A stretch of DNA of 32,000 nucleotides from Nonlabens ponticola (GTDB lineage: Bacteria > Bacteroidota > Bacteroidia > Flavobacteriales > Flavobacteriaceae), in the NCBI RefSeq assembly GCF_003966335.1, contig NZ_CP034549.1, forward strand, positions 630,001 through 662,000, written 5' to 3'. The position numbers and the translations under genes were made by a program. The notes beneath the pieces are model-generated. The model was not told where the DNA came from, made no database searches, and saw nothing but the letters and a program-made list of their open reading frames with translations. Every line of letters begins with the position of its first letter. Position 1 is the stretch's first letter. This document shows positions 462-30,963 of this stretch, piece after piece.

Positions 462-2036
462 TTAATACCTACTAGAAAGATCCTTAGCAACTGATGTCAA
501 AGTATCTATAACTTCATCAGTTAGTTTTCCAGCTTTGAGAGTATCTAAAGCACCTCTATGCTTTGCATCCAGTAATTCAAGGTAGTCTCTTTCAAATTCT
601 TTTACCTTATCAATCGGCACGTTGCGTAATAGATTCTTTGAACCAGCATAGATAATCGCTACTTGATTTTCTACTGGGTAAGGGTTGTTTTGTGCTTGTT
701 TCAAGATCTCCACATTGCGACGACCTTTCTCAATAACGCCTAAAGTCGCAGCATCTAGATCAGATCCAAATTTTGCGAAAGCTTCCAGTTCACGGAATGC
801 CGCCTGGTCAAGCTTTAGCGTACCAGATACTTTCTTCATCGACTTGATCTGTGCAGATCCACCTACACGAGATACTGATATACCAACATTAATAGCTGGA
901 CGTACACCAGAGTTAAACAAGTCACCGTCTAGGAATATCTGTCCGTCAGTAATCGAGATTACATTTGTTGGGATATAAGCGGATACGTCACCAGCCTGTG
1001 TCTCAATAATAGGCAATGCCGTTAAGGAACCACCACCTTTAACGATAGGTTTCAAACTATCTGGTAAGTCGTTCATCTCCTTAGCGATTTCATCATCCGC
1101 AATCACCTTTGCTGCGCGCTCTAATAATCTTGAGTGTAGATAGAAAACGTCACCTGGATACGCCTCGCGTCCTGGTGGACGACGTAGCAATAGGGACACC
1201 TCACGGTAAGCAACCGCTTGCTTAGACAAATCATCATAAACGATCAATGCTGGACGACCCGTATCACGGAAGTACTCACCAATCGCTGCACCAGCAAACG
1301 GTGCATAAACCTGCATAGGTGCAGGATCAGATGCGTTTGCAGCAACGATAGTTGTATAAGCTAGAGCACCAGCTTCTTCCAGCACCTTAGCGATGTTTGC
1401 AACAGTTGACGCCTTTTGTCCTATGGCAACATAGATACAGTAAACAGGCTCACCTGCGTCATAAAATTCTTTTTGATTGATAATAGTATCAATACACACG
1501 GTAGACTTACCAGTCTGACGGTCACCGATTACAAGCTCACGCTGTCCACGACCTACAGGAATCATTGCGTCAATCGCCTTGATACCTGTTTGCATTGGCT
1601 CATTTACTGGTTGACGGAAGATTACACCTGGCGCTTTACGCTCCAGCGGCATCTCATACAAGTCACCTTCAATCGCACCTTTACCATCAATAGGTTCTCC
1701 TAGCGTGTTAACTACACGTCCTACGATACCTTCACCTACTTTGAGAGATGCAATACGCTGCGTGCGCTTCACCGTATCACCTTCTTTGATCTCAATTGAG
1801 GATCCTAGAAGTACCACACCTACATTATCTTCTTCAAGGTTCAATACGATACCTTCCATACCACTCTCAAAAGAAACAAGTTCTCCATATTGTGCGTTAG
1901 AAAGACCATAAACACGTGCGATACCATCACCTACGGTAAGAACGGTTCCCACTTCATCAAGCGATGCGGTCGCATCAAAACCTGATAGTTGTTGCTTAAG
2001 TATTGCAGATACTTCTGCTGGATTTACTTCTGCCAT
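462..2036 (-). CDS. atpA: F0F1 ATP synthase alpha subunit
   Basis: 524 aa with Walker A GDRQTGKS and characteristic alpha-subunit motifs ([21 protein letters not shown]). Confidence 0.98.
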
Positions 2037-2096
2037 GTTATTGTATTTATTCTATTACTGTGGTCTTTAAAAGGACCGTTGTGTTTTTATTATTCT

Positions 2097-2116
2097 GCTT
2101 TCGCGAAAGCGTAATC
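2097..2116. repeat. palindromic repeat copy 1 (exact core GCTTTCGCGAAAGC + right arm GTAATC)
   Basis: tattct-GCTTTCGCGAAAGC-gtaatc. Intergenic, between atpH and atpA. Confidence 0.9.
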
Positions 2117-2126
2117 TCTTCAATCT

Positions 2127-2660
2127 TTACTGCGCGAACTCTCTTTTTAACTCTCCAAGAGTTGCCTGCACGCTAGCATTAATTTCTTTATCGCCTACTC
2201 TTAATATAAAGCCACCCAAGATGCTAGGATCGATCTTCTTCTCCAATGTAACTTCCTTACCAGCTAGAGTTCTTGCCTTTTCAAGCACTTTGGTTTCAAG
2301 TTGCGGTGTGATTTCTACTGCTGTAGTTACCGTTGCGATCTCTCGCTTGTTCATCTCTTCAAAGAGAATGTTATACTTCATGGCAACATCCTGTAAGATA
2401 TCAGCACGATTGTTATCTACAATAAGATCAAAAGCACCCATCGTGATACCGTTAGAATCCTTGAAGATTTGTCTTAGCGCACCACGCTTTTGATCACTCT
2501 TGATCAACGGACTTTGTAAGAATTGACGCAATTCTTTATTCTTGTGAACTGTTACCAGGACACTTTTCATGTCTTCATTGACTGCACTAGCCTCATTTTT
2601 CTCAACCGCTAGGTCAAGAATGGCTTTGGCATATCGTGAAGCAGCTCTGGATAGTTTCAT
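2127..2660 (-). CDS. atpH: F0F1 ATP synthase delta (OSCP) subunit
   Basis: 177 aa, sitting between atpF and atpA. OSCP-like sequence (RYAKAILDLA..., GGFILRVGDKEINASV). Confidence 0.85.
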   Translation of the reverse strand: MKLSRAASRYAKAILDLAVEKNEASAVNEDMKSVLVTVHKNKELRQFLQSPLIKSDQKRGALRQIFKDSNGITMGAFDLIVDNNRADILQDVAMKYNILFEEMNKREIATVTTAVEITPQLETKVLEKARTLAGKEVTLEKKIDPSILGGFILRVGDKEINASVQATLGELKREFAQ

Positions 2661-3453: not shown

Positions 3454-4659
3454 TTAAACAAAACGTTCTCTTACATCTTCAACACTTGCCTGCTCTGGAT
3501 CTGGCTCCAGTTCGTGATGGTGATCATGTTCTGCAACAGCCATACCTATAAATAGGGCAGATAGCATAGTGAAGATATAGGCCTGTAAAAAGGCTACTAA
3601 TAATTCTATTACTGATATAAATAAGGTAAGGAAAACTGATAATCCAGTAGATCCTATGGCTCCAAATTGAGCCTTCAATGTGATCATCAAAGCGATCAAA
3701 CTCATTACAACAAAGTGACCAGCGGTAATATTTGCAAACAAACGTATCAAGAGTGAGAAAGGCTTGGTAAATATTCCCAACACCTCGATTGGGATCAAAG
3801 CGATTTTCATCAAGACAGGTACATCTGGCATCCAGAAGATATGCTTCCAGTAGTCTGCATTTGCACTAAACTGTACGATGAAAAACGTAAATAAAGCAAG
3901 ACATACCGTCACCGCTATTTGTCCAGTGATATTAAAACCAAATGGTGTAAGGCCCATTAAATTGGCGATCCATATAAGGAAGAAAACTGTCAATAGGTAT
4001 CCCATAAACTTGCGATACTTTGCCTCACCTATATTAGGTCTAGCAATCTCATCACGTACATAAATCACTAGAGGCTCAAGAATACGTCCAAAACCAGTTG
4101 GTATATCTTTTTTCTTATACTGTCTAGCAAGACCACCAAAAACGATGAGCAGAAGTACACCTATAAATATTAAACCAAAAACAGACTTGGTAATTGAAAA
4201 GTCCAACACGCGTGCTGCGTTAGTTGGGTGATGCTCCTCATCAAAATTGATACTAGTTGCACCATCTTCTAATTCGTAAATCTTACTGTGCAGTTTGATA
4301 AGGGTAACACCATCTGCATCTACCTTTACCTCACCAGTATCATCATGGTGAAATTTTGAAGATAAAAAGGTGCGTAAACCTTCACTAGTCCATACAATCA
4401 CAGGCAATGACATACCAACATGTTCACGCACGCCAGCATCATTAGTATAGGAAAAAAGGTGAAAATCATGAGTATCCTGCAAGTGGTGCTGTATATATTC
4501 CTTAATCTCACCATCAGTATTGATGCGACCACCATCGTTGTCCATGACTTCTTCATGAGCAGGACCATCCTCATGATCTAGAAGTTCTTGCGCTGCTACT
4601 AAAGTGCAGCTGAGAAACATAAAAGATAAAAAGGCAGCTTTTAAATATGCTTGAAACAT
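3454..4659 (-). CDS. atpB: F0F1 ATP synthase subunit a, with a long N-terminal extension and a His-rich C-terminal tail
   Basis: 401 aa. The C-terminal half is polytopic and carries the subunit-a Arg motif (LRLFANITAGH). Operon position fits. Confidence 0.9.
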   Translation of the reverse strand: MFQAYLKAAFLSFMFLSCTLVAAQELLDHEDGPAHEEVMDNDGGRINTDGEIKEYIQHHLQDTHDFHLFSYTNDAGVREHVGMSLPVIVWTSEGLRTFLSSKFHHDDTGEVKVDADGVTLIKLHSKIYELEDGATSINFDEEHHPTNAARVLDFSITKSVFGLIFIGVLLLIVFGGLARQYKKKDIPTGFGRILEPLVIYVRDEIARPNIGEAKYRKFMGYLLTVFFLIWIANLMGLTPFGFNITGQIAVTVCLALFTFFIVQFSANADYWKHIFWMPDVPVLMKIALIPIEVLGIFTKPFSLLIRLFANITAGHFVVMSLIALMITLKAQFGAIGSTGLSVFLTLFISVIELLVAFLQAYIFTMLSALFIGMAVAEHDHHHELEPDPEQASVEDVRERFV

Positions 4660-4765: not shown

Positions 4766-4790
4766 GGATTACGCTTTCGCGAAAGCTAAC
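4766..4790. repeat. palindromic repeat copy 2 (GGATTAC + exact core)
   Basis: ggattac-GCTTTCGCGAAAGC-taac. Intergenic, upstream of atpB. Confidence 0.9.
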
Positions 4791-4794
4791 ACAA

Positions 4795-5160
4795 TCAATT
4801 CTTATTGAGCCATTTAATGACGATGCCTACTTCTACAAATAGAAAGATAAAATAAGGAGCTATAAAACCTAAAAGTTGACGTTTTGATAGCGCTGGATCC
4901 TCGGCAATCAATTCTGGAAATAAAACGAGCGCGGCGCCACACTTTATAAATATGGCCGCTAGAAATGCATACCCCAATTTATCTGGCACATAGGCATGAG
5001 TGAATTTTAAAGCGCTAACTGTTAGAAATGTAGCCAAACCTAGAAAAAGATAGATCCTTAAAGGTGATATCGCTGGATTATCTACATACCAGTCGTGTAC
5101 AAAATACGCGATAAGGCAGCATACTAGGATGACTATAAATGTCTGGAGATAAAATTTCAT
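4795..5160 (-). CDS. small polytopic membrane protein at the head of the atp operon (AtpI/AtpZ-like position); function unknown
   Basis: 121 aa with about 4 hydrophobic helices. Co-directional with atpB and 135 nt upstream of it. Confidence 0.6.
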   Translation of the reverse strand: MKFYLQTFIVILVCCLIAYFVHDWYVDNPAISPLRIYLFLGLATFLTVSALKFTHAYVPDKLGYAFLAAIFIKCGAALVLFPELIAEDPALSKRQLLGFIAPYFIFLFVEVGIVIKWLNKN

Positions 5161-5597: not shown

Positions 5598-8207
5598 TTA
5601 AGGGGTTTGTTGCTGGTAGTCGTTTAGGCTCTTGTAAACCTGCACGATCTTATAATTATCGGTTGCAATAACGGTAAATTCTTGAGGTAGTGAAGATATG
5701 CGGTTAGGAGTTGCTAGATATTCTGCAAGCTCAGCAGCATTTTCTTTATCCTTAAAATTGTGAAGCACTACCAGACTTGTTTCTGCTGTATAGACATCAA
5801 TGGAAAAAGTGATGCCATTGCCTATGCTTTTAAATTCTTCTACCATCTTTACCGCAATGTCCTGACGCAAGTTGCTATCACCAGCTGGAATCTCAAAAAG
5901 AACCTTGAAATTTTCTAGCCTGTCCTCAGGTAAGAAAGTATCAGGAATACGTAAACGTTCTGCACTGGCAGATAGTTCCGCTGCTTTCTCTGCTTCTTCA
6001 GTTCCTGGGTAATTAAGGGCTATGAAATCTAGGCCTTCCTTATAAGCTTTTAAACCATACAATCTTCCAGAAGCGTACGTCTTGAGCAATTCTAGTTTTG
6101 GAACTATGGGATCGCCGCTGTAGCTTATAATTTTCTCATTGGCTTCTTCTATTACTTGTGCAAATTGCTCATTCTCATACTTTCTATACAAATCTGCATA
6201 CACACTTTCTGGACTACCAGTGCGATCCAGTTGTGTTTGTGGATTGAGCAGGATTTGTGCATATCGAGAATCAGGATATCTTGATATGATGGTGTTTTTG
6301 TATTGTTCCGCTTTCGCGAAAGCATAATCGCCACCAGCATTATCTACTCCTAACAGGTATAGGTTGTATAGAGTAGGTAAGTATAATTTTTGCTCTGGTT
6401 CAAAAGTAAGTAGCGTCTCAAATCGATCAATGGCTAGATCGCTGCGCTTGAATTTCTCCTTATATAAAACACCCAATTGATAGTAGGCAAAATCGCGAGC
6501 ATCTGCGATACTATCAAGCGCGACATCGCCTTGAGGCAACTGCTGCATATAATAGGATGCTAGATATTCTGGTGGTGTCTCGCTGCTGGATGCATCTGCA
6601 ATGTCGCTATCTTCATTCTCTTGCAATGCACTGCGCTGACTGTCCAGTCTCCAGTTTTCTTCCAGCGTGCGGTTGCCCCATCGACTACGGAATTCCAACT
6701 TACCTCTTGCCACGGTAGTAGGTACATAAAAATAGAACGAGCCTTGACCGCGTGATCCTATATCGTCAACAGTATTGGCTGGCGGCCCAAGATTGCGTCC
6801 ACCTGGCACATTTGCAGGAATGGTAGAAAGCGCCGTTTGCTGCTGCGCTAGGTTTGCTTCTTCAATCGCAGCCTGCTCTGCCAGCTGGCGATCACGTTCT
6901 TTAATGGTTTCAATATACTCATTATAGTAGGCTTCTCGCTCTATATCGCTCATGGCGAGAACTGCCAGTAGGCTATCAGCACTGCGGCGATTGGATTCGA
7001 ATAAAATGATATCTGATAGGTTATCGCGCTTTTTAGTCGTGGCACGTTTTTCTCGAGAGCGATCTGCATACAAGGCTACCGCGCTGTCATAATATCTGCC
7101 GGCTTGCTCAAATCTAGCCTGGTTAAAACTGATGGCGCCTAGCGCGCTATAATTATTTGCTCTTAAATAGCTATCGCGATTAGGCTCTCTCAATGATTGA
7201 TTATAGGCGACAACTGCGGCATCAACACTATCAATGCCTTCATAAAAAATGGCCTTGCGAGAATAGATTAAATCCAACCACGGTCTGTTCTCGCGATTTT
7301 GCTCTAGATCGTTGAGTAGATAGAATAATTGAGCGTCGCTCATTTCTAGCGTATCGCGCAACTTGATTTTTTCTATAAATGCCTGAACGTAATAATCACG
7401 TGGTATTTTACGGTGTAAATCGATCACCTCGTCAAAGTGTACAATAGCGCTATCTCGCATTCCAGCACGAGCAAAAAGTTGTCCTGTGATGAACTTGTAA
7501 CGACCTTCAGTAGCACGGTCTTTTGTTCTATCGGCAGCGCGGTTCATGTAGATGATGGCACTATCGATTTTATTGACGTTGAGATATGCTTGACCTAGCG
7601 TGGCGTTTGCTAGGATGAGATCTTCCTTATCAAACTCAATGCTGTCCTTGAGAGCGACGAGTTCTTGAAGATTCTCTATCGCTATCTCATTGTTGTCTAG
7701 GCGCATGTTGGTTTTTTCTCGCCAGATGCGAGCGCGTTTGCTCTTATCAGCGTCTGGCATGAATTGCAGCACATAGTTAAATGCCTCAATCGCCTCGACA
7801 TAACGCTGGTCATAATAGCGAGCCTTGCCCAACAACATGTAAGCCTCATCAATCTGCGGATTGCGCTCTTCACCATCAATAAGCATGGTGTGTTTTTGTA
7901 CGGCCTTTATGGCTTTTTCTTCTGCTCTTGCAAAATTTGGGTCGGATTCATCTGGATTGGCAATCTTGATTTCTTCACTGAAGGCAAGTGGTTCTACTGG
8001 AAGAATATCCCAGTAATTGTCGACGAAGTTGGTTCTTATGCCTTCCAGACCTTCTTGCAGGGCAAGATTACCGTTATAAAGTGTATTGAATTCTGTATTG
8101 ACAGCATGATAGTTACGAGAAAGGAAAGAATCGCTTTTACGGCTGCAACTCGCTAGGACGACTAGCGCGAGTAATAAAACGGTACTTATGGAAAAGAGGT
8201 GTTTCAA
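5598..8207 (-). CDS. large TPR-repeat lipoprotein; possibly a SprE/PorW-like gliding-motility/T9SS component (from memory, unverified)
   Basis: 869 aa with a lipoprotein signal (LLALVVLASC) and multiple TPR-like helices. Size and N-terminal FLSRNYHAVNTEFNTLYNG resemble what I recall of SprE. Contains palindrome copy 3, in frame. Confidence 0.8.
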   Translation of the reverse strand: MKHLFSISTVLLLALVVLASCSRKSDSFLSRNYHAVNTEFNTLYNGNLALQEGLEGIRTNFVDNYWDILPVEPLAFSEEIKIANPDESDPNFARAEEKAIKAVQKHTMLIDGEERNPQIDEAYMLLGKARYYDQRYVEAIEAFNYVLQFMPDADKSKRARIWREKTNMRLDNNEIAIENLQELVALKDSIEFDKEDLILANATLGQAYLNVNKIDSAIIYMNRAADRTKDRATEGRYKFITGQLFARAGMRDSAIVHFDEVIDLHRKIPRDYYVQAFIEKIKLRDTLEMSDAQLFYLLNDLEQNRENRPWLDLIYSRKAIFYEGIDSVDAAVVAYNQSLREPNRDSYLRANNYSALGAISFNQARFEQAGRYYDSAVALYADRSREKRATTKKRDNLSDIILFESNRRSADSLLAVLAMSDIEREAYYNEYIETIKERDRQLAEQAAIEEANLAQQQTALSTIPANVPGGRNLGPPANTVDDIGSRGQGSFYFYVPTTVARGKLEFRSRWGNRTLEENWRLDSQRSALQENEDSDIADASSSETPPEYLASYYMQQLPQGDVALDSIADARDFAYYQLGVLYKEKFKRSDLAIDRFETLLTFEPEQKLYLPTLYNLYLLGVDNAGGDYAFAKAEQYKNTIISRYPDSRYAQILLNPQTQLDRTGSPESVYADLYRKYENEQFAQVIEEANEKIISYSGDPIVPKLELLKTYASGRLYGLKAYKEGLDFIALNYPGTEEAEKAAELSASAERLRIPDTFLPEDRLENFKVLFEIPAGDSNLRQDIAVKMVEEFKSIGNGITFSIDVYTAETSLVVLHNFKDKENAAELAEYLATPNRISSLPQEFTVIATDNYKIVQVYKSLNDYQQQTP
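6306..6329. repeat. palindromic repeat copy 3 (exact core), inside the TPR lipoprotein CDS
   Basis: On the coding strand: gattat-GCTTTCGCGAAAGC-ggaac, which encodes DYAFAKAEQ. Confidence 0.9.
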
Positions 8208-9586: not shown

Positions 9587-9617
9587 GTCTTTAATATGTA
9601 GTGGTGATGGTATGGTT

Positions 9618-9642
9618 GTTACGCTTTCGCGAAAGCGGAATC
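9618..9642. repeat. palindromic repeat copy 4 (exact core)
   Basis: gttac-GCTTTCGCGAAAGC-ggaatc. Intergenic, between the permease-like gene and the ABC ATPase gene. Confidence 0.9.
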
Positions 9643-11225: not shown

Positions 11226-12272
11226 ATGGTTTTCCACCAACTGTCCATAAAAGAAGTCACAAAAGTCACTTCACAAGCCGTTGAGATCGTCTTTGACGTG
11301 CCGCAGGATTTGAAAAGCGATTTTGAATATACCGCAGGCCAGTACTTGACCTTGAGAGCAGATATTGATGGCAATGACGTGAGACGTGCCTACTCATTGA
11401 GCAGCGCACCACATGAAGATCACTTGAGTGTTGTGGTAAAGGCTGTGCAGCATGGTACATTCTCAAACTATGCCATGAAACTGCGCGCTGGCGACACCCT
11501 TCAAGTCGCGCCACCAGATGGATTGTTTATTCACGAGAGCGATGCCAGTGCCGTCAATCACTATTTGAATGTTGCAGCAGGTAGCGGTATCACACCTATA
11601 ATGTCCATCATCAAGAGTATTCTTCATACTGAAAAAGACAGCCGAGTGGTATTAATTTATGGGAATCAGTCTCAATCGCAGACCATATATTTTGAGCAAT
11701 TGAACGATTTGCAAGACGCCCATCCAGATCGTTTCAAAGTGCGGTACAGTTTCTCTAGAGAAGAGCGTCAGGATGAGTTGTTCGGTCGTGTGAACAAGGC
11801 AAACCTCAATTATTTTTTGAAGAATGATTGTGAGGATTACGCTTTCGCGAAAGCTTACCTATGCGGTCCAGAAGCCATGATCAATATGGCAACAAACAAC
11901 CTTACCGAGAAAGAGGTCGTCGCCAAAGAAAACATCAAATTTGAACTCTTCACCGCTACAGAAAGTGAGGTAGAAATCACCGAAGATTCTCACTTGACGG
12001 AGGTAAAAGTCATCCTAGACGATGAAGAACACCAACTTACCATGCGTCGTGATGAGACCTTGCTTGAAGTGATGCTCAAAAACGATATCGATGCACCTTA
12101 TTCCTGCCAAGGAGGAATTTGTAGTAGCTGCGTAGGCTTGCTAGAGGAAGGAAAAGCCACCATGCGCAAAAATTCTATTCTCACTGACGAGGAAGTAGAT
12201 GAAGGCCTAACACTCACCTGCCAGGCTTGCCCAACTACCGCCAAGATTGTGGTTAATTTTGATGAGGTTTAA
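11226..12272 (+). CDS. ferredoxin-NAD(P) reductase fused to a plant-type 2Fe-2S ferredoxin domain (PaaE/PaaK-like oxidoreductase)
   Basis: FAD motif RAYSLSS, NAD(P) motif AAGSGITP, the CGP motif, and a C-terminal CQGGICSSC...C cluster. Contains palindrome copy 5, in frame. Confidence 0.9.
   Translation: MVFHQLSIKEVTKVTSQAVEIVFDVPQDLKSDFEYTAGQYLTLRADIDGNDVRRAYSLSSAPHEDHLSVVVKAVQHGTFSNYAMKLRAGDTLQVAPPDGLFIHESDASAVNHYLNVAAGSGITPIMSIIKSILHTEKDSRVVLIYGNQSQSQTIYFEQLNDLQDAHPDRFKVRYSFSREERQDELFGRVNKANLNYFLKNDCEDYAFAKAYLCGPEAMINMATNNLTEKEVVAKENIKFELFTATESEVEITEDSHLTEVKVILDDEEHQLTMRRDETLLEVMLKNDIDAPYSCQGGICSSCVGLLEEGKATMRKNSILTDEEVDEGLTLTCQACPTTAKIVVNFDEV
11834..11859. repeat. palindromic repeat copy 5 (GGATTAC + exact core), inside the ferredoxin reductase CDS
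   Basis: ggattac-GCTTTCGCGAAAGC-ttacc, which encodes (E)DYAFAKAYL immediately before the CGP motif. Confidence 0.9.
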
Positions 12273-13828: not shown

Positions 13829-14461
13829 GTGCGACCTATCATCGACCCTAATTTTGCAGTAGACACCTATTTCCCGATTGACTTATCTGTGCACAATCCC
13901 TATTGGGATCAGCATGATGTGAGTGATATCGAGACTTTTGAACATTATCTTGAAGAAAAGCGCAAGTATCACGACAAGTTTGTAGCGCATGGTGGCTTTA
14001 AGGAGCAAAGAGCATTATATCGCAAGTCTGCCAGATTTCAGGATGGTGCGGTGCGTGATATTCACATGGGTATTGATCTGTGGGCGCCAGCTGGCACCAG
14101 TGTGCATGCGCTCATGGATGGTATGATAAATTCTTTCGCAAATAATGACGATGCTGGGAACTATGGACCTACCTTGATTTTGGAACACGATTTTCAAGGA
14201 AAGAAGTTATACAGTCTTTACGGTCATCTTGCCGTTAGTGATATGCAGGACTGGTCTGTAGGATTACGCTTTCGCGAAAGCGAGATCATAGCACACCTAG
14301 GTACACCTCAAGAAAACGGTGGTTATTCACCGCACCTACACTTTCAAGTTATGACAGACATGCTGGATTATCGCGGCGATTTTCCAGGAGTTTTAGCTAA
14401 AGAGCAATTGGCTGAATTTGATAAAATCATTCTCGATCCCAATCCGTTTATATTTGGATGA
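13829..14461 (+). CDS. M23-family metallopeptidase (no obvious signal peptide)
   Basis: HxxxD-type GIDLWAPAGTSVHAL, YGHL, and SPHLHFQV motifs. GTG start. Contains palindrome copy 6, in frame. Confidence 0.85.
   Translation: MRPIIDPNFAVDTYFPIDLSVHNPYWDQHDVSDIETFEHYLEEKRKYHDKFVAHGGFKEQRALYRKSARFQDGAVRDIHMGIDLWAPAGTSVHALMDGMINSFANNDDAGNYGPTLILEHDFQGKKLYSLYGHLAVSDMQDWSVGLRFRESEIIAHLGTPQENGGYSPHLHFQVMTDMLDYRGDFPGVLAKEQLAEFDKIILDPNPFIFG
14261..14287. repeat. palindromic repeat copy 6 (GGATTAC + exact core), inside the M23 peptidase CDS
   Basis: ggattac-GCTTTCGCGAAAGC-gagatc, which encodes GLRFRESEI. Confidence 0.9.
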
Positions 14462-15555
14462 TGGATCAGCAAGAATTACTCTCCTTATTGGCACTTAAAA
14501 AAGCTCCATTGATAGGTGATATCATGGCTAAGAAGTTGATCAGAACCTTTGGAAGTGCGACCAGCGTCTTTGAGCAAAAGTATCAAGACATTGCCGCAAT
14601 AGAAGGCATAGGCGAGAAGAAGGCACAATTCATCAAATCCAAAACGCTATTCCCAAAAGCAGAAAAAGAGCTGCAATTTATAGAGGAAAATAAACTTAGA
14701 TACAGGGTTTATTACAATGAGGATTATCCAGAGCGATTGCAGTATTGTGTCGATGGACCAATCATCTTTTTTGAGAAAGGAAATGTAGATTGGAGTAATC
14801 CATACACGCTTAGTATTGTTGGAACTCGACAAATCACCTCGCAAGGCAGTGCTTTTCTAGAGCAATTTATGGAGCAAATTGCGCCGCTCAAACCTACTAT
14901 CATCAGCGGTTATGCCTATGGAGTTGATATTCTTGCGCACAAGCTTGCCATCAAATATGATTTACAAACGGTAGCCGTGATGGCTCATGGACTCAATCAA
15001 ACCTATCCTCGCAATCACGCTGCACATAATAAGGACATGATGGCAAATGGCGGTTTTGTTACAGATTTTTGGAATGATGACACATTTGACCGAAAGAATT
15101 TTCTGGGTCGTAACCGCATCATCGCAGGATTGAGTGAAGCAACGGTAGTAATTGAAAGCGCCAGTAAAGGTGGCTCGCTGGTCACTGCAGAAATTGCCAA
15201 CAGTTACAACCGCGAGGTGTTTGCCGTGCCTGGCCGCGTGACTGATAAATACAGTTCTGGATGCAATCAATTGATCAAACAGTCCAAGGCTCACATGCTC
15301 ACCACCGCAGCAGATATTCCCTACATTCTAGGCTGGCAGGAACGCAACGTGGCTGTGCAAAAACAACTTTTTGTAGAGCTTAGCGATGATGAGAAAAAAG
15401 TATTTAATCACCTCAAACAAAATGGTCAGGAACTTTTAGACATAATAGCTTTGAAAGAACAGATGGCCGTTCACAAAGTAGCTTCTATTCTCATGACCAT
15501 GGAGTTGAAAGGAGTCGTGAGACCGCTACCTGGCAAGTTGTTTGAATTGGTCTAG
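14458..15555 (+). CDS. dprA: DNA-processing protein A (Smf)
   Basis: 365 aa with a Rossmann-like DprA core (IVGTRQITSQG, GYAYGVDILAHK, ESASKGGSLVTAE). ATGA overlap with the upstream M23 gene. Confidence 0.92.
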   Translation: MMDQQELLSLLALKKAPLIGDIMAKKLIRTFGSATSVFEQKYQDIAAIEGIGEKKAQFIKSKTLFPKAEKELQFIEENKLRYRVYYNEDYPERLQYCVDGPIIFFEKGNVDWSNPYTLSIVGTRQITSQGSAFLEQFMEQIAPLKPTIISGYAYGVDILAHKLAIKYDLQTVAVMAHGLNQTYPRNHAAHNKDMMANGGFVTDFWNDDTFDRKNFLGRNRIIAGLSEATVVIESASKGGSLVTAEIANSYNREVFAVPGRVTDKYSSGCNQLIKQSKAHMLTTAADIPYILGWQERNVAVQKQLFVELSDDEKKVFNHLKQNGQELLDIIALKEQMAVHKVASILMTMELKGVVRPLPGKLFELV

Positions 15556-16546: not shown

Positions 16547-16605
16547 AAGCGTTCCTAGTCGTTGCCCAAGATCGCGAGCTTACTTGCGAGACTATTTAAT
16601 TCGTC

Positions 16606-16613
16606 TATTTTTG
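16606..16613 (+). promoter_or_regulatory. candidate -7 box (TAttTTTG) just upstream of the plsC ATG at 16620
   Basis: tatttttg ends 6 nt before the ATG, which would imply a leaderless or near-leaderless mRNA. The call is weak. Confidence 0.3.
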
Positions 16614-16619
16614 GCAGCT

Positions 16620-17360
16620 ATGAAATGGTTGCGATACGTCTTGATGCCTCTGTACAGGATATGGTTTTATATATTGCTTGCGGTTCCTATTATCGTGATG
16701 TTTCCGTTTTTATTATTGTCGGTCATTTCAGAAAAGACTTATTCTGCATTCTTTTTTATGGCGCGCATCTGGGCTGCAATCATATTGTACGGCATGGGAT
16801 TCTGGCCAGTTATAAAACGAGAGGCTGGAATGGAAAAAGGTAAGAGCTATATGCTAGTTGCCAATCACACCAGTATGGCAGATATTATGTTGATGTTACT
16901 CATTGCCAAAAATCCATTTGTGTTTGTAGGTAAATCTGAGCTGGCTAAAATTCCCGTATTCGGTTTTTTCTACAAGAGAACCTGTATATTGGTGGATCGC
17001 AAAAATCCGCGCAGTCGCCAGGCTGTCTTTGAACGTGCGAGCGAGAGACTTAACGACGGCGTAGGCATCTGCATTTTTCCTGAAGGTGGTGTTCCTGATG
17101 ATTTGAGCGTGCAGCTGGATAGTTTTAAGGACGGCGCTTTTAGGCTGGCCATTGAGCATCAAATACCGGTAGTGCCCATGAGTTTTTATGATAACAAGAA
17201 ACGATTTCCATACGTATTCTTCAAAGGCTCACCTGGAATCATGCGTGCAAGGACGTTACCTATTCAGGAAACTCGTGGCTTGCAATTGCCTGGTGATAAA
17301 GTTAGCTTTCGCGAAAGCGTAAGAACCATCATGCTCAACGATTTGCAAAAACATCAGTAA
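16620..17360 (+). CDS. plsC: 1-acyl-sn-glycerol-3-phosphate acyltransferase
   Basis: Acyltransferase motifs NHTSMADI (HX4D) and FPEGG. The ORF track starts at a TTG at 16584; I prefer the ATG at 16620 (MKWLRYV...), but the start is uncertain. Contains palindrome copy 7, in frame. Confidence 0.85.
   Translation: MKWLRYVLMPLYRIWFYILLAVPIIVMFPFLLLSVISEKTYSAFFFMARIWAAIILYGMGFWPVIKREAGMEKGKSYMLVANHTSMADIMLMLLIAKNPFVFVGKSELAKIPVFGFFYKRTCILVDRKNPRSRQAVFERASERLNDGVGICIFPEGGVPDDLSVQLDSFKDGAFRLAIEHQIPVVPMSFYDNKKRFPYVFFKGSPGIMRARTLPIQETRGLQLPGDKVSFRESVRTIMLNDLQKHQ
17301..17322. repeat. palindromic repeat copy 7 (exact core + GTAA), inside the plsC CDS
   Basis: gtta-GCTTTCGCGAAAGC-gtaa, which encodes VSFRESV(R). 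Confidence 0.9.
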
Positions 17361-21237: not shown

Positions 21238-21251
21238 GCTTTCGCGGAAGC
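21238..21251. repeat. palindromic repeat copy 8 (13/14, GCTTTCGCGgAAGC)
   Basis: Intergenic, in the recA/trhO divergent region. One mismatch breaks the palindrome. Confidence 0.6.
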
Positions 21252-21276: not shown

Positions 21277-21391
21277 AGGGCGTTTCCTCTAGCATATCGC
21301 TGTCGCTCAAGGCTAGAGGTCAGGCTATCCGTTACAATCTATTGTCACGCTTGTGGCGTGGCAACAGGATTTTCACTGCTATCCTTAACGC
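21277..21391. other. ~115-nt structured intergenic element with two hairpins and a repeated GCTATCC box; candidate small RNA or REP-like element
   Basis: Hairpin A pairs CCTCTAGC (21286..21293) with GCTAGAGG (21312..21319). Hairpin B pairs TTGTCACGC (21342..21350) with GCGTGGCAA (21356..21364, one G-U). GCTATCC occurs at 21324 and 21378, after each hairpin. It resembles intergenic elements I recall from other Flavobacteriia; this is unverified. Confidence 0.4.
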
Positions 21392-21453
21392 AAATAGATT
21401 GTGCCTACTATCTGACTACTAGCAGCGCAGCGGTCAAATATCTATAATCTAAC

Positions 21454-21488: not shown

Positions 21489-22523
21489 ATGCAACTGTAT
21501 AACAAATTAAGTGCTGAAGAGAGAAGACAATTGATACGTGAGGCTGGTAAGCAGCGGCTCACGATCTCTTTCTATCAGTATGCCTTTATTATTGATCCAC
21601 AATTATTTAGAAACTATCTGTTTGTAGACTTTAATGCTCTTGATGTCTTGGGACGTATTTATGTCGCTCATGAAGGTATCAACGCCCAATTTTCTATTCC
21701 GGCAGATCGTTTTAAGGAGCTCAAAAAATTTCTAGATGGCATCGACTTTCTAGAAAACGTGCGATTAAATATCGCTCGAGAACATGACGATGAGAGTTTC
21801 TTGAAGCTGAAAGTCAAGGTGCGCCATAAGATTGTTGCCGATGGACTTGAAGACGACTCCTTTGACGTGACTAATAAAGGCGTTCATGTAGATGCCGCTA
21901 GATTCAATGAGCTGATTGATGATCCTGATACGGTGCTGGTTGATATGCGCAATCATTATGAGAGCGAGATAGGTCATTTTCAAAATGCGTGGACGCCTGA
22001 TGTGGACACCTTTCGCGAAAGCTTACCCATCATCGAGGAAGAAATAAAAGACCACAAAAAGGATAAGAAACTGGTAATGTATTGTACCGGCGGCATACGT
22101 TGTGAGAAAGCAAGTGCCTATTACAAGCATCGCGGTTTTGAGGATGTTTACCAGCTAGAAGGTGGTATCATCGAGTATCACAGACAGGTAACTGAGCAAG
22201 GATTGGAGAATAAATTTAGAGGTAAAAATTTTGTTTTTGACGCGCGATTATCTGAAAAGATAAGCGATGAGATCATCTCTAACTGCCATCAATGTGGCGA
22301 GCCTTGTGACACGCACACAAATTGTGATAATGAGGGCTGTCATTTACTTTTCATACAATGTGAGAATTGCCGGAAAGCATTTAAAAATACCTGTAGCACT
22401 CATTGTTTAGAGGTAATACAGTTATCAGCTGAGGAGCAAAAGCAACTGCGAGCAGGTAAGCCTGCGAAAAATAAAAAGTTTAAAAAAGGGCGCTCGTCAA
22501 AACTGGAATTTAAAAAACAATAG
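21489..22523 (+). CDS. trhO: rhodanese-domain tRNA uridine(34) hydroxylase (YceA/UPF0176 family)
   Basis: ISFYQY...GRIYVAHEGINAQFSIP, rhodanese active site CTGGIRCEKAS, and a C-terminal Cys-rich HQCGEPCD..C. I prefer the ATG at 21489 over the track's TTG at 21459, which overlaps a TAnnTTTG box. Contains palindrome copy 9. Confidence 0.9.
   Translation: MQLYNKLSAEERRQLIREAGKQRLTISFYQYAFIIDPQLFRNYLFVDFNALDVLGRIYVAHEGINAQFSIPADRFKELKKFLDGIDFLENVRLNIAREHDDESFLKLKVKVRHKIVADGLEDDSFDVTNKGVHVDAARFNELIDDPDTVLVDMRNHYESEIGHFQNAWTPDVDTFRESLPIIEEEIKDHKKDKKLVMYCTGGIRCEKASAYYKHRGFEDVYQLEGGIIEYHRQVTEQGLENKFRGKNFVFDARLSEKISDEIISNCHQCGEPCDTHTNCDNEGCHLLFIQCENCRKAFKNTCSTHCLEVIQLSAEEQKQLRAGKPAKNKKFKKGRSSKLEFKKQ
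22009..22027. repeat. palindromic repeat copy 9 (13/14 core + TTACC), inside the trhO CDS
   Basis: cCTTTCGCGAAAGC-ttacc, which encodes TFRESLP. Its 18 nt CTTTCGCGAAAGCTTACC are identical to copy 5. Confidence 0.7.
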
Positions 22524-23830: not shown

Positions 23831-24496
23831 CTATTTAGCACCCAAAACAATTACAAACTCACCCTTTGGTTTTTTCTCTGTAAAATAGGCAATCGCTTCT
23901 GCGACGGTTCCTCTGTAGTGTTCCTCAAACATTTTGGTAATCTCACGTGAGATGGAGATTTGCCTGTCGGCACCGTAATGTGTTTGAAAATCGGTTAGAG
24001 TTTTCATTAGTTTATGCGGTGACTCATAGAAAACGATGGTGCGTGTTTCCTCGGCCAGTAGTTTTAATCGGGTTTGGCGGCCTTTTTTAACAGGTAAAAA
24101 TCCCTCAAAAACAAACTTGTCAGATGGTAGCCCGCTACTGGTAAGTGCTGGTACAAAGGCAGTGGCACCAGGCAATGATTCAATCTCCAGATTTGCGGCA
24201 ATCACCTTTCGCGCAAGCAAAAACCCAGGATCACTTATACCTGGCGATCCAGCATCTGTGATGAGCGCCATGGTCTCGCCTGCTGCAATTCTCTTGACGA
24301 TAGAGTCTGCAATCTTGTGCTCGTTGTGCATATGATAGGACAACATTGGCGTCTTAATTTGGTAATGGTTGAGCAATTTGCCGCTGGTGCGCGTGTCTTC
24401 TGCCAGTATGAGGTCTACCTGCTGCAAGATCTCGACCGCACGGTAGGTCATATCGCCTAGATTACCTATGGGCGTGGGCACGAGATATAGTTTCAT
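23831..24496 (-). CDS. rsmI: 16S rRNA (cytidine1402-2'-O)-methyltransferase
   Basis: 221 aa, LYLVPTPIGNLGDMTYRA, AEDTR, DAGSPGISDPG; tetrapyrrole-methylase-fold RsmI signature. Confidence 0.93.
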   Translation of the reverse strand: MKLYLVPTPIGNLGDMTYRAVEILQQVDLILAEDTRTSGKLLNHYQIKTPMLSYHMHNEHKIADSIVKRIAAGETMALITDAGSPGISDPGFLLARKVIAANLEIESLPGATAFVPALTSSGLPSDKFVFEGFLPVKKGRQTRLKLLAEETRTIVFYESPHKLMKTLTDFQTHYGADRQISISREITKMFEEHYRGTVAEAIAYFTEKKPKGEFVIVLGAK

Positions 24497-25117: not shown

Positions 25118-26575
25118 TTGAGTTCCATCAACCGCCTTTTTAAACACACTTTTGTATACGGTCTGGCGACTGTTTTGCCACGATTGTTGACGGTGCTGCT
25201 CACAAGGCTGCTGACTGAATATTTACCCAGCAAGACCGCTTTTGGCGAGGTTTCCATTATCTTTTCATGGATCATTTTATTCAACGTGATCTTGACTTAT
25301 GGTATGGAGACTTCTTTTTTCCGCTTTTTCAGCGAAAGCGAGAATAAAAACAAGGTCCTAACCACAGGACTGGTTTCTTTGCTGGGTACCACCATCGCAT
25401 TTGTTGTGATTGCCTTTTTAGGTCTGGACTATATTGAGGCCTGGTCTAGCAAATCAGCCGATTATTGGCGTTGGGTCATAGGAATACTGGCTTTTGATAC
25501 CATGATGGTGATTCCGTTTGCTTATATGCGGGCGCAAGGAAAGAGTCTCAAGTATGCTGTGATCAAGATGATCAATGTAGTCATTTCAGTTGGTATGACT
25601 GCTGTATTTTTGATCTGGTTGAGCGATCTACCTACTATAAATCAGTTCTTACCAGAAGATAAAGTGGAGTTATACTTCATCGCATTGATGACCGCCAGTT
25701 TTATTACTTTGTTTCTTGTAGGTGGCATTTATCTTAGAAAATGGGAATTTGATTCAGTATTATGGAAACGAATGCTGCGCTATGGCTTTCCTATTTTGAT
25801 CGCAGGTCTGGCGTTTGCTGTAAATGAGACTTTCGATAAGATCTTACTAGAATGGCTGTTGGTAGATGACGCCACAGCGCAAACCGGTGTTTATTCGGCT
25901 TGTTATCGTGTGGCCGTTGGAATGACCTTGTTTGCCACCGCTTTTAAACTAGGTGTCGAGCCTTTCTTTTTCAGTGAGTCCAAAAGCAAAGACGCCGTTG
26001 AAACCTATGCCAAAATCACTAAAATGTTTGTGATACTAGGATCAGTCGCACTGATTACCTACACGATTTTCATAGATCTGATCAAGAGATTAATTATTGA
26101 TGAAGAATACTGGGAAGCATTAGATATCGTGCCAGTCATTTTGATTGCCTACTTCTTTTTTGGCATCTATCAAACCTTATCGGTATGGTATAAGGTGACT
26201 GATCGCACCAGTTTTGGTGCTTGGATCTCAGTTTTAGGTGCTGCGATTACCATAGGTCTCAATATTTGGCTTATTCCAGTGATAGGATATATGGCAAGTG
26301 CGCTTACCACATGTGCCGCTTACGGTTTAATGATGCTGGTATCCTATTTATTGGGCAGAAAGTATTACCGCATCCCTTACGAGGTAGGCAGTTTATCGCT
26401 GTACCTGTTTCTTTCTATTGCTGCGACCATGCTGTTTTTCTACACCATTCGTGAGAGTCTAGGTGCAGATACCTGGCAAATGTATGCGGCAGGAATTGCC
26501 CTAGCCTTGCTTGTTTCAACCTTCATCTTGTATAAAGAACGACTGTTTATCAAATCATTATTTGCAAAATCATGA
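25118..26575 (+). CDS. polysaccharide/oligosaccharide flippase (Wzx/MOP superfamily)
   Basis: 485 aa with about 12-14 TM helices and an N-terminus ([17 protein letters not shown]) typical of flavobacterial flippase-family proteins. TTG start. Confidence 0.8.
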
Positions 26576-27036: not shown

Positions 27037-27061
27037 GGATTACGCTTTCGCGAAAGCGTAA
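27037..27061. repeat. palindromic repeat copy 10 (22-bp perfect palindrome TTACGCTTTCGCGAAAGCGTAA, preceded by GGA)
   Basis: Intergenic, between dut and the TPR gene. This is the most complete copy in the window. Confidence 0.95.
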
Positions 27062-27085
27062 CATCATAAAAACTGCTCAAAAAAT

Positions 27086-29613: not shown

Positions 29614-30963
29614 ATGAAAATCCAGCTCGTATTTTTTGCCATGTTTTTCTGCCTGATGGTTTCGGCGCAGGAAGATGTGACGCTGGAAGATGTAAATGTG
29701 GACGATCTGGGTATCGTCAATGATGCCTTTAAGGAAAACTTCTTTGATGCTTTATCAGAAAAGGCACGCGGCAACCATGATCGAGCCATTGAGAAATTGC
29801 TGAAATGCGAGAAATTAGAGCCTGAATCTGGCGCGGTGCAATTAGAACTTGCAAAGAATTATATGGCTAGTAACGCTTTCGCGAAAGCGGAATCACACCT
29901 ACTTAAAACCATACAATTATCAGGAGAACGAGAGTGGATCCTCGATACCTTACTCGAGAATTATGAAAGCCAGAAGCAATATGATAAGGCACTCAGTACA
30001 TTAAAAAAGCTGATTGACATCAACGACTCTTATAGAGAATTACTGCCTATCGCATATTTAAAAGTGGAAGATGAGTCTAGCGCATTGCAAGCACTCGATG
30101 CGCTAGATCGCGATTTAGGCCCTAGCGATAAGCGCAACAGATTGAGGAGAACATTACAAAAAACTACCGCGACCACAGGTTCACAACCTGTAATAGATCT
30201 TGAAGAGCGACTTAGCTCTAATCCAAAAAATTCAGACCTATATGCGCAATTAATGTACGCTTACAGCCAGACCCAGGACGAGGAAAAAATGTTGAGCGTT
30301 GCAGCGAGATGGCGTCAAAATATTCCTAGTGATGACCAGCCGTATCTAGCACTTTATAAAATCTACCTCAATCGTGGTGATATAGAAAAAGGGTTATCAA
30401 GTCTGGTAAGAGTGCTCAAGTCCTCACAATTAGATGATCAAGTTAAATCGCAAGTAATTACCGATTATTTGAATGCTATTGAATCGCGCCCAGAACTGGC
30501 CTCTCAAGTGGATGAGATCATGAAGATTTATGAAAGTCAGATTGAAGACACACAAGCTTTTATTGCATTAGGCAATTTTTATAAAGAAAAGAATCAATTG
30601 AATCGTGCCGTACGTTTTTACCAAATGGCATTAGATCAAGATGATCAGGATTTTGATTTGATTAAAATAACATCGCTGTTGTACCTGGACCTGGGAAAAT
30701 TTGATGATGCGGCGACCATCAGCGAACAAGCGTTGGAAATCTATCCAGCACAATCATTGTTGTACTTAATCAATGGTGCTGCTCTAAATCAGCTGCAAGA
30801 ATATAAGAAGGCAATAACAGTGCTGGAAACTGGGTTATCATTTTTACTGGATGAGCCGCAACTGGAAAAAGATATTTATGAGCAGCTGTTGCTGTCCTAT
30901 GAAAAACTAGGCGACAATAAAAAAGCTGCATCATTGCGTGAAACACTGCGCGACTTGAATTAG
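29614..30963 (+). CDS. secreted TPR-repeat protein
   Basis: 449 aa with a signal peptide and many TPR-like helices. Contains palindrome copy 11, in frame. Confidence 0.75.
   Translation: MKIQLVFFAMFFCLMVSAQEDVTLEDVNVDDLGIVNDAFKENFFDALSEKARGNHDRAIEKLLKCEKLEPESGAVQLELAKNYMASNAFAKAESHLLKTIQLSGEREWILDTLLENYESQKQYDKALSTLKKLIDINDSYRELLPIAYLKVEDESSALQALDALDRDLGPSDKRNRLRRTLQKTTATTGSQPVIDLEERLSSNPKNSDLYAQLMYAYSQTQDEEKMLSVAARWRQNIPSDDQPYLALYKIYLNRGDIEKGLSSLVRVLKSSQLDDQVKSQVITDYLNAIESRPELASQVDEIMKIYESQIEDTQAFIALGNFYKEKNQLNRAVRFYQMALDQDDQDFDLIKITSLLYLDLGKFDDAATISEQALEIYPAQSLLYLINGAALNQLQEYKKAITVLETGLSFLLDEPQLEKDIYEQLLLSYEKLGDNKKAASLRETLRDLN
29870..29894. repeat. palindromic repeat copy 11 (exact core), inside the TPR protein CDS
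   Basis: gtaac-GCTTTCGCGAAAGC-ggaatc, which encodes SNAFAKAES. 23 nt are identical to intergenic copy 4. Confidence 0.9.

Follow-up and report, generated by a model that had tools for sequence, protein, structure and literature searches.

In a stretch of 32,000 nucleotides from the chromosome of Nonlabens ponticola (NZ_CP034549.1, positions 630,001 to 662,000; hereafter the window), the gene for the tRNA U34 hydroxylase TrhO contains an exact match to a 12-bp palindrome that recurs within the same window. We consider the trhO site to be a recently formed copy of a genomic word shared by the lineage, CGCTTTCGCGAAAGCG, of the class formed by the cyanobacterial HIP1 (Highly Iterated Palindrome 1, GCGATCGC) and the uptake signal sequences (USS), which is kept by selection or drive at the DNA level, and we give this explanation a probability of about 0.6. 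In the proposed mechanism, a conserved sequence-specific factor would read the word as duplex DNA, and mutations toward the word would preferentially be fixed, via selection or biased transmission, as long as a segment of a few kb lacks a copy. Reading as a duplex is proposed because each half of the word matches the consensus rather than its partner arm, and because half-words show no enrichment by themselves. As for trhO, 10 of the 12 bases were already supplied by its conserved peptide TFRES, and the synonymous replacement of AGA by CGC completed the word.

The sample was local: besides the window it comprised eight loci, each about 20 kb long, and the copies in three of these are not independent because the loci are syntenic with the window. 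In addition, 80 TrhO loci with 10-kb flanks were taken from GTDB species genomes, together with further Nonlabens and Dokdonia loci, and homologue sets were also gathered for the M23 peptidase, SprE and the TPR protein.

The word and its origin by substitution

The core of the word is the palindromic 12-mer CTTTCGCGAAAG, which is present in the window in ten exact copies and in two copies with one mismatch; 0.08 matches with at most one mismatch are expected, and 100 shuffles all stayed below 12. The informative word has 16 positions (CGCTTTCGCGAAAGCG, also a palindrome), with the invariant 12-mer core bordered by weaker TT-N and N-AA arms. Its flanks are T-rich on the 5' side, with T at positions -10 and -11, and A-rich on the 3' side, and the aligned window copies give a perfectly palindromic consensus of 26 bp (GATTACGCTTTCGCGAAAGCGTAATC). 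Six of the window copies are located within long open reading frames (ORFs), which encode SprE/PorW, a PaaE-like reductase, an M23 peptidase, PlsC, TrhO and a TPR protein. Among the 49 exact copies in 174 kb of word-carrying DNA, about two thirds are found in ORFs and one third in spacers, and spacers are enriched, as 4 of the 10 window copies lie within the roughly 10% of the window that is non-coding. All three reading frames are used by the coding copies. In the AFAKA frame, the perfect palindrome would encode a TAA stop codon, and the coding copies deviate from the consensus exactly there. The word shares with the highly iterated palindromes that it is a short, exact palindrome over-represented in coding and non-coding DNA; with USS and with the DNA uptake sequences (DUS) it has in common that it is hyper-abundant in related taxa, enriched in spacers and regularly spaced.

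In trhO, window positions 22005-22027 read GACACCTTTCGCGAAAGCTTACC and encode VDTFRESLP, which bears out the TFRESLP motif described in an earlier note on this DNA. The motif PDVDTFR[ED]SL aligns without a gap in 82 TrhO orthologs, structures from Bacillus and Legionella have ..FRE.. at the equivalent place, and E. coli K-12 TrhO contains ADTFREQLP at this position, exactly as given in the earlier note. The trhO copy agrees with the word family only in the 12-mer core, with matches at 4 of 14 flank positions and at 13 of the 16 positions of the informative 16-mer. The note had also pointed to a match of 18 nt with the repeat. The 18-mer CTTTCGCGAAAGCTTACC indeed occurs exactly twice in the window, at 11842 (copy 5, in the PaaE-like reductase gene) and at 22010, but this identity is partly due to TrhO's own ancestral AGC TTR CCN.

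The five other Nonlabens trhO genes encode TFRES in three cases and TFRDS in two, and none of them carries the word; the three TFRES genes use the codons ACC TTC AGG GAA AGT, ACT TTT AGA GAA AGC and ACC TTT AGA GAA AGC. By this comparison, the word in trhO was made solely by a synonymous change of the Arg codon from AGA to CGC. Because about 23 other TrhO orthologs encode TFRES and none has the word, the peptide alone is not sufficient for its presence, and its probability given TFRES and the codon usage of the window is 0.016.

The earlier note had supposed that at least some coding copies are length-neutral overlays on native motifs, and the ortholog alignments support this for each of the six coding copies that the window contains. 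The 120 M23 homologs are gap-free at the site of the peptide GLRFRESEIIAHLG, which is as the note described it; outgroups show G..[FVI]KKG[QE].[IL]A.LG and about 70 Nonlabens sequences G.RFRESE.IA.LG, such that the word overwrites a conserved Gly. Likewise, the peptide NAFAKAES of the TPR protein was described correctly, and 55 homologs align without gaps while LKx[YF]xxAE is changed to NAFAKAE. In the PaaE-like reductase, KENPFDAAFLCGP or SHNFDDYFLCGP stands opposite EDYAFAKAYLCGP in a gap-free alignment of 6 orthologs. PlsC has about 60 orthologs with a homologous ..DKxxLRExVR.. helix. Here, [CA]GC TTT CGC GAA AGC is found in the window and in four further Nonlabens, corresponding to the replacement of L by F and of K by S, and a Nonlabens ortholog of the same length but without the word (locus L003) reads CGT TTG CGA GAA AAG; the sole gap is located 6 residues upstream of the site and is also seen in a Nonlabens ortholog lacking the word.

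In SprE, the outgroup helix GEMAKAE corresponds to NAFAKAE at equal length in many Nonlabens species, with some cosmetic gaps around the word in an alignment that was calculated in fast mode. The N. ponticola clade (P0121-P0133) has an additional variable loop of 4-7 residues directly upstream of the copy; this loop is rich in D, G, S and N, maps to window positions 6330-6360 next to the left arm and is confined to this clade. One member, P0131, shows a 14-residue expansion within the motif itself, and the variability of the loop may reflect local instability at the palindrome. A pair of Dokdonia SprE sequences with 74% identity and no gaps differs in ASAKA versus AFAKA, and in a phage terminase HLKAAKQ (Winogradskyella phage Peternella_1) aligns with HIAFAKA, again without a gap. 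Copies that are private to other species are likewise free of repeat-sized insertions. Length differences near copies amount to only 1-3 residues and occur in variable loops, i.e. at PaaE site 2 in L081, in the RadA linker in L084 and in the SprE loop.

At about 15 independent coding sites, no repeat-sized indel was detected in the ortholog alignments. As judged from these alignments, copies are shown to be formed where they stand, with point substitutions turning existing codons or spacer bases into the word, and not by insertion, which corresponds to the substitution origin of the HIP class. Only the TrhO copy is, on the same comparison, a purely synonymous overlay, because residues are replaced in the other coding copies. 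An insertion of 24-30 nt that is absent from relatives was sought in the alignments and found at no site, in line with the note's argument against cut-and-paste mobility. Its further claim that the word accumulates wherever the peptide tolerates it understates the pressure at the DNA level, because residues are replaced and the conserved M23 Gly is lost, while wordless lineages have the family consensus.

Constraint, spacing and distribution

The 174 kb of carrier DNA contain 49 exact, 5 one-mismatch and 3 two-mismatch copies, against a background, scaled from 1.49 Mb of non-carrier DNA, of 0 exact, 0.2 one-mismatch and 5.5 two-mismatch copies. The word family is all-or-none, with no decay series. 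In orthologous coding copies, third codon positions are identical in 128 of 130 cases (0.98) within the word and in 242 of 494 cases (0.49) just downstream, a comparison in which the copy sets were chosen as retained copies and are thus ascertained. Orthologous copies are common to up to 5 species, and as in the HIP class this conservation between genomes exceeds the background. The copies are shown to stay exact as DNA, also at synonymous positions, in surroundings that diverge.

For M23, a rough neighbour-joining tree calculated with the motif masked places three wordless lineages within the carriers, and these lineages carry the family consensus again, which suggests that the DNA word is held against the preference of the protein. 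The nested wordless homologs (P0065, P0067, which is identical to L001, and P0071-P0076) show the canonical motif as ..VKEGQ.., ..IKKGE.. or ..YAAGE.., and the L001 site differs from the word version at 15 of 24 nt; such lineages could have originated by reversion or by a recombination patch. Another M23 homolog, P0082, contains the word in a different frame (..ESAFAKANSQ..) and is divergent thereafter, which likely reflects a frameshift or an assembly error at the palindrome.

The intervals between copies are more even than random, with a coefficient of variation of 0.35 in the window (P = 0.002-0.003) and comparable results for L083 (P = 0.001-0.002) and for the non-syntenic L084 (P = 0.009-0.03); none of 41 intervals is shorter than 1.3 kb. 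The trhO copy sits between the decayed copies at 21239 and 24206, roughly midway between those at 17306 and 27045, and it arose in the one lineage in which 21239 and 24206 each decayed by one base. Copies are shown to turn over between species, and the gain in trhO combined with the decay of its neighbours looks like site turnover under a density constraint, although this last step is our interpretation.

The word was found in all seven Nonlabens loci at 0.19-0.39 copies per kb. Two Dokdonia-type sequences contain it as well: a metagenome contig has 5 copies within 16.9 kb, and 22.5 kb of a genome with the source label uncultured Dokdonia sp. have 3, at orthologous positions. The assignment to Dokdonia rests on this label and on the 74% SprE identity. 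Overall, the density in Nonlabens and Dokdonia is about one copy per 2.5-5 kb. The other 77 Flavobacteriaceae TrhO loci, which amount to 1.49 Mb, lack not only the word but also the 10-mer TTTCGCGAAA.

A scan of IMG/VR detected the 16-mer in 40 stretches. Low-GC contigs from this collection (L092, L098, L104, L114 and L121) have 2-7 copies inside terminase, portal and head-protease genes, a density that is biased upward because the phage contigs were picked for containing the word. The word-bearing contigs are related to flavobacterial phages of the temperate type, one of them Mu-like. The virulent Nonlabens phage P12024S (L127, 35.7 kb) contains no copy or near-copy, where the density of the host would give 7-14; it encodes an Erf-like annealing protein and an exonuclease.

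A word of its own was observed in the TrhO locus of Haloflavibacter putidus (L070). The dispersed, non-palindromic CTTTACGGAA has 10 matches with at most one mismatch in 21 kb versus 0.56 expected, with unrelated flanks, and its coding copies read ALRK, one of them within the conserved RecA peptide SQALRKL. The sequence GCTTTACGGAA occurs 6 times in this locus, on one strand (1697, 9097, 11199, 19007, 19916 and 20403), and CTTTACGGAA is absent from all other loci examined. The Haloflavibacter word may represent a second dialect of the same phenomenon, in which dialects would be lineage-specific.

Copies in the window and their surroundings

The positions of trhO and of all copies in the window, including decayed and disrupted ones, are compiled in Table 1.

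Table 1. Word copies in the window and the trhO gene (coordinates refer to the window).
Feature	Position	Strand	Remarks
trhO, tRNA U34 hydroxylase, 354 aa	21459..22523	+	UPF0176_N, Rhodanese, Rhodanese_C (Pfam); PDB 9j5o 'tRNA uridine(34) hydroxylase' 2e-50
Core-only copy in trhO, ACC TTT CGC GAA AGC = TFRES	22010..22021		exact core match
Intergenic copy, core 2098-2109	2091..2116		between ORFs 462-2036(-) and 2127-2660(-)
Intergenic copy, core 4774-4785	4767..4792		between ORFs 3454-4659(-) and 4795-5160(-)
Copy in sprE/porW (5598-8207, -), DYAFAKAEQ	6304..6329		AFAKAE in nearly all Nonlabens orthologs
Intergenic copy, core 9624-9635	9617..9642		orthologous to L082 5597 and L083 5234
Copy in PaaE-like ferredoxin reductase gene (11226-12272, +), DYAFAKAYL	11835..11860		right arm off-palindrome where TAA would arise
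Copy in M23 peptidase gene (13829-14461, +), GLRFRESEI	14262..14287		family motif G..[FVI]KKG[QE].I overwritten
Copy in plsC (16584-17360, +), KVSFRESVR	17299..17324		ancestral peptide ..LRE(K)VR
One-mismatch copy CTTTCGCGGAAG, recA-trhO spacer	21239..21250		exact orthologous copies in three other Nonlabens; decayed here
One-mismatch copy CTTTCGCGCAAG in rsmI (23831-24496, -), LARK	24206..24217		N. marinus copy exact (LSRK)
Disrupted copy CGCTTTTTCAGCGAAAGCG in ORF 25118-26575(+)	25322..25340		3 extra bases at centre; L001 ortholog (13881) exact, 3 nt shorter
Intergenic copy, near-perfect 26-bp palindrome, core 27045-27056	27038..27063
Copy in 449-aa TPR gene (29614-30963, +), SNAFAKAES	29869..29894		common to L001

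The recA-trhO spacer, which is conserved across Nonlabens species, contains a Flavo-1 RNA (RF01705, 51.8 bits) at 21314-21399 on the minus strand, beside the decayed copy at 21239. Both dprA (window 14458-15555; its L082 ortholog contains PF02481) and recA are present, and since these genes are near-universal they carry no weight as evidence for competence. The species represented by L001 and L082 have an extra gene between dprA and trpS, and a copy is located just past the dprA stop codon at the edge of this segment (L001 2598, L082 11771); the window and N. marinus have neither a spacer nor a copy there. In the Dokdonia-type contig L081, a Dam-like MethyltransfD12 gene at 1030-1700 is split into two short ORFs and is possibly a pseudogene. 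The hexamer TTCGAA, from which the word centre TTCGCGAA differs by an inserted CG, is about 3.4 times rarer in carriers (11 in 174 kb) than in non-carriers (323 in 1.49 Mb).

Possible functions, rival explanations and known systems

Full-text literature searches found no description of the Nonlabens word, and its nearest known counterpart is HIP1. HIP1 reportedly propagates by nucleotide substitutions, as Robinson et al. are said to have described in 1997. The HIP1 palindrome is hyper-abundant in genes and spacers, non-randomly spaced and without a peptide or RNA role (PMC5861425; PMC4390886); it is conserved, periodic and was inferred to be under selection (PMC5861425), and it raises the efficiency of natural transformation (10.1101/2024.09.10.611283; 10.64898/2026.06.24.733823). 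Gene families have also been profiled across genomes against the density of HIP1 (10.64898/2026.06.24.733823). The Nonlabens word resembles it as a short exact palindrome with lineage-wide hyper-abundance in coding and non-coding DNA, conserved sites and non-random spacing. It differs in its sequence (CGCTTTCGCGAAAGCG versus GCGATCGC), its length of 12-16 bp versus 8 bp, its Bacteroidota host, its lower density of about 0.2-0.4 per kb and its short-range evenness, as opposed to the 10-90 kb periodicity of HIP1, and it is an analogue of HIP1 rather than HIP1 itself. The HIP1 system is further defined by cognate orphan DNA methyltransferases.

With the USS of Pasteurellaceae and the DUS of Neisseriaceae, the word has in common a hundred- to thousand-fold over-representation, the presence in genes and spacers with enrichment in the latter, the occurrence in related genera with varying flanks, and encoded peptides that lie in tolerant protein segments. 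According to Mell and Redfield (2014; cited in PMC7965970), USS and DUS are thought to build up through point mutation together with a bias in uptake and recombination. The earlier note had proposed a USS-like molecular drive, which is one of the two readings that fit; the data do not separate drive from selection.

By analogy to these systems, the function that we rank first, if only tentatively, is that of a self-DNA tag for uptake or recombination. Natural competence with a preference for the cell's own DNA is known from some Flavobacteriales, and within this order Riemerella columbina takes up its own DNA preferentially (PMC7965970). Somewhat more doubtful is the extended proposal that the Nonlabens/Dokdonia word represents the first sequence-specific self-DNA tag described in Bacteroidota, a 16-bp palindromic uptake or recombination signal that substitutions would have placed at even distances in chromosomes and temperate phages, with related genera such as Haloflavibacter using other words. 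Several points weigh against such a role. USS and DUS are asymmetric 9-12-mers and not palindromes, and copies with one mismatch are common among them, while the Nonlabens word is palindromic and far sharper, with a ratio of exact to one-mismatch copies of about 10:1. The phage contigs carry the selection bias mentioned above, the literature search did not find natural transformation of Nonlabens or Dokdonia, and Flavobacterium johnsoniae was not competent (PMC7965970). Furthermore, the even spacing and the positional conservation are accounted for just as well by selection for a chromosomal function.

Such a chromosomal function could be provided by a dimeric chromosome-organising protein, either nucleoid-associated or similar to ParB, Noc or SlmA, for which the word would be the binding site, selected at one site per few kb; we regard this as unlikely, but as the strongest of the alternatives. 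Substitutions would generate the copies, since any mutation that closes a gap in the array would be at a selective advantage. The palindromic structure of 12-16 bp, the AT-rich flanks and the halves that match the consensus independently would agree with this, as would the even spacing, the positional conservation with turnover and the apparently compensating gain in trhO, and the periodicity of HIP1 was interpreted likewise (PMC5861425). The arrays of Noc (NBS), SlmA (SBS), ParB (parS) and KorB also consist of 12-16 bp TTT...AAA palindromes within genes, which are read by dimers in those systems. However, these arrays comprise only tens of sites per chromosome, and the 0.2-0.4 sites per kb of the Nonlabens word are about 10-50 times denser than Noc, SlmA, matS or parS arrays, which counts against an organiser. 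In parS and NBS, 4 bp separate the TTTC half from the GAAA half, compared with 2 bp in the Nonlabens word. In addition, the sites of such proteins are usually degenerate, whereas the word copies are all-or-none, and the copies in phage structural genes would need a separate explanation.

Improbable to a greater degree is a Chi-like signal that tames an AddAB/RecBCD-type nuclease at double-strand ends, with the palindrome working from either side. Phages that use host recombination would then acquire the word and phages with their own recombinase would not, and the word is indeed present in temperate, Mu-like phage contigs and missing from the virulent P12024S with its Erf-like protein and exonuclease. 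Even spacing and the generation of copies in genes by codon choice are also compatible with this proposal; Chi sites are likewise over-represented in core DNA and present in some temperate phages, and a Chi-like component was suggested for HIP1 (10.1101/2024.09.10.611283). Yet the half-word GCGAAAGC occurs outside of copies only 7 times in 174 kb, counting both strands, which is about chance for an 8-mer. A Chi-type half-word was therefore rejected, and the unit is the full palindrome of 12-16 bp. Chi sites, which act as a single strand, are moreover only 5-8 nt long, asymmetric, strand-biased and few-fold over-represented.

That the trhO copy is a coincidence of a conserved peptide and codon drift, unrelated to the repeat family, is very improbable. 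The peptide is ancestral, relatives already match 9-10 of the 12 bases, CGC accounts for 27% of the Arg codons and the copy is without similarity in the arms. Nonetheless, the low probability of the exact word given TFRES and its absence from all of the roughly 23 other TFRES orthologs speak against chance, and two-mismatch near-matches are not in excess in carriers, so that the exact copies do not form the extreme end of a distribution expected by chance.

Even slightly less credit is due to the idea that the word works at the RNA level, where its hairpin would serve the termination, stability or processing of transcripts, or that it is kept for a favoured peptide (AFAKAE or RFRES). Full copies fold at -7.5 to -12.2 kcal/mol and spacer copies are found between co-directional genes, but all three frames and spacers are used and about 23 TFRES orthologs exist without the word, which disfavours a peptide. 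The complementarity of the arms is no higher within copies (2.37 of 6) than between copies (2.38-2.55; permutation P = 0.62), and the trhO copy does not fold as RNA (-1.5 kcal/mol, z = 0.36); a hairpin selected for its structure was rejected on these grounds. An intrinsic terminator, in which a GC-rich hairpin precedes a U run, was also rejected, as T-rich 5' and A-rich 3' flanks have the wrong order on both strands and most copies are inside ORFs. An Rfam search of the window returned only Flavo-1 and no family at any of the copies.

Least probable of all is that the copies are miniature mobile elements of the REP/RAYT, MITE or Rickettsia palindromic element (RPE) type that insert into genes and spacers. 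The 26-bp perfectly palindromic consensus with its fold of -12.2 kcal/mol and the large number of scattered copies, of which a third lie in spacers, recall such elements; REP/REPIN sequences with RAYT and MITEs are likewise short dispersed palindromes with hundreds of copies per genome, and RPEs are palindromic repeats in frame in protein-coding genes. REPs, however, are extragenic, imperfect, species-specific and gained as insertions, whereas the Nonlabens word is mostly intragenic, exact, present with an identical core in two genera and made by substitution; RPEs are insertions of 100-150 bp that add residues to the host protein, and the word adds none. The mobile element was rejected because indels of repeat size, target duplications and a graded decay series are all absent; arm covariation and compensatory hairpin changes were not found either, and the trhO copy has neither arms nor a fold. 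Avoidance or enrichment of the NruI-type hexamer TCGCGA at the centre of the word was a further candidate that was rejected, as its frequency outside of copies is 0.11 per kb, compared to 0.09 per kb in non-carriers.

Only rarely is an exact word hyper-abundant, and how such words arise and what they serve has long been a puzzle; USS and DUS are understood, while HIP1 is still debated after 30 years. The Nonlabens/Dokdonia word, if it is maintained as we propose, would be an independent, longer and sharper example in another phylum, and its carriers are cultivable marine bacteria. Its substitution-only births can be dated on the species tree, and its conflict with the protein sequence is visible at the M23 Gly. 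Together with the turnover of copies, the contrast between temperate and virulent phages and the possible second dialect, this would offer a tractable system to separate drive from selection. The word could also improve genetic tools for Flavobacteriaceae and mark taxa in binning and in the assignment of phages to hosts. If it is indeed a self-DNA tag, DUS-like dialects, and hence word-guided gene exchange, would exist in marine Flavobacteriaceae.

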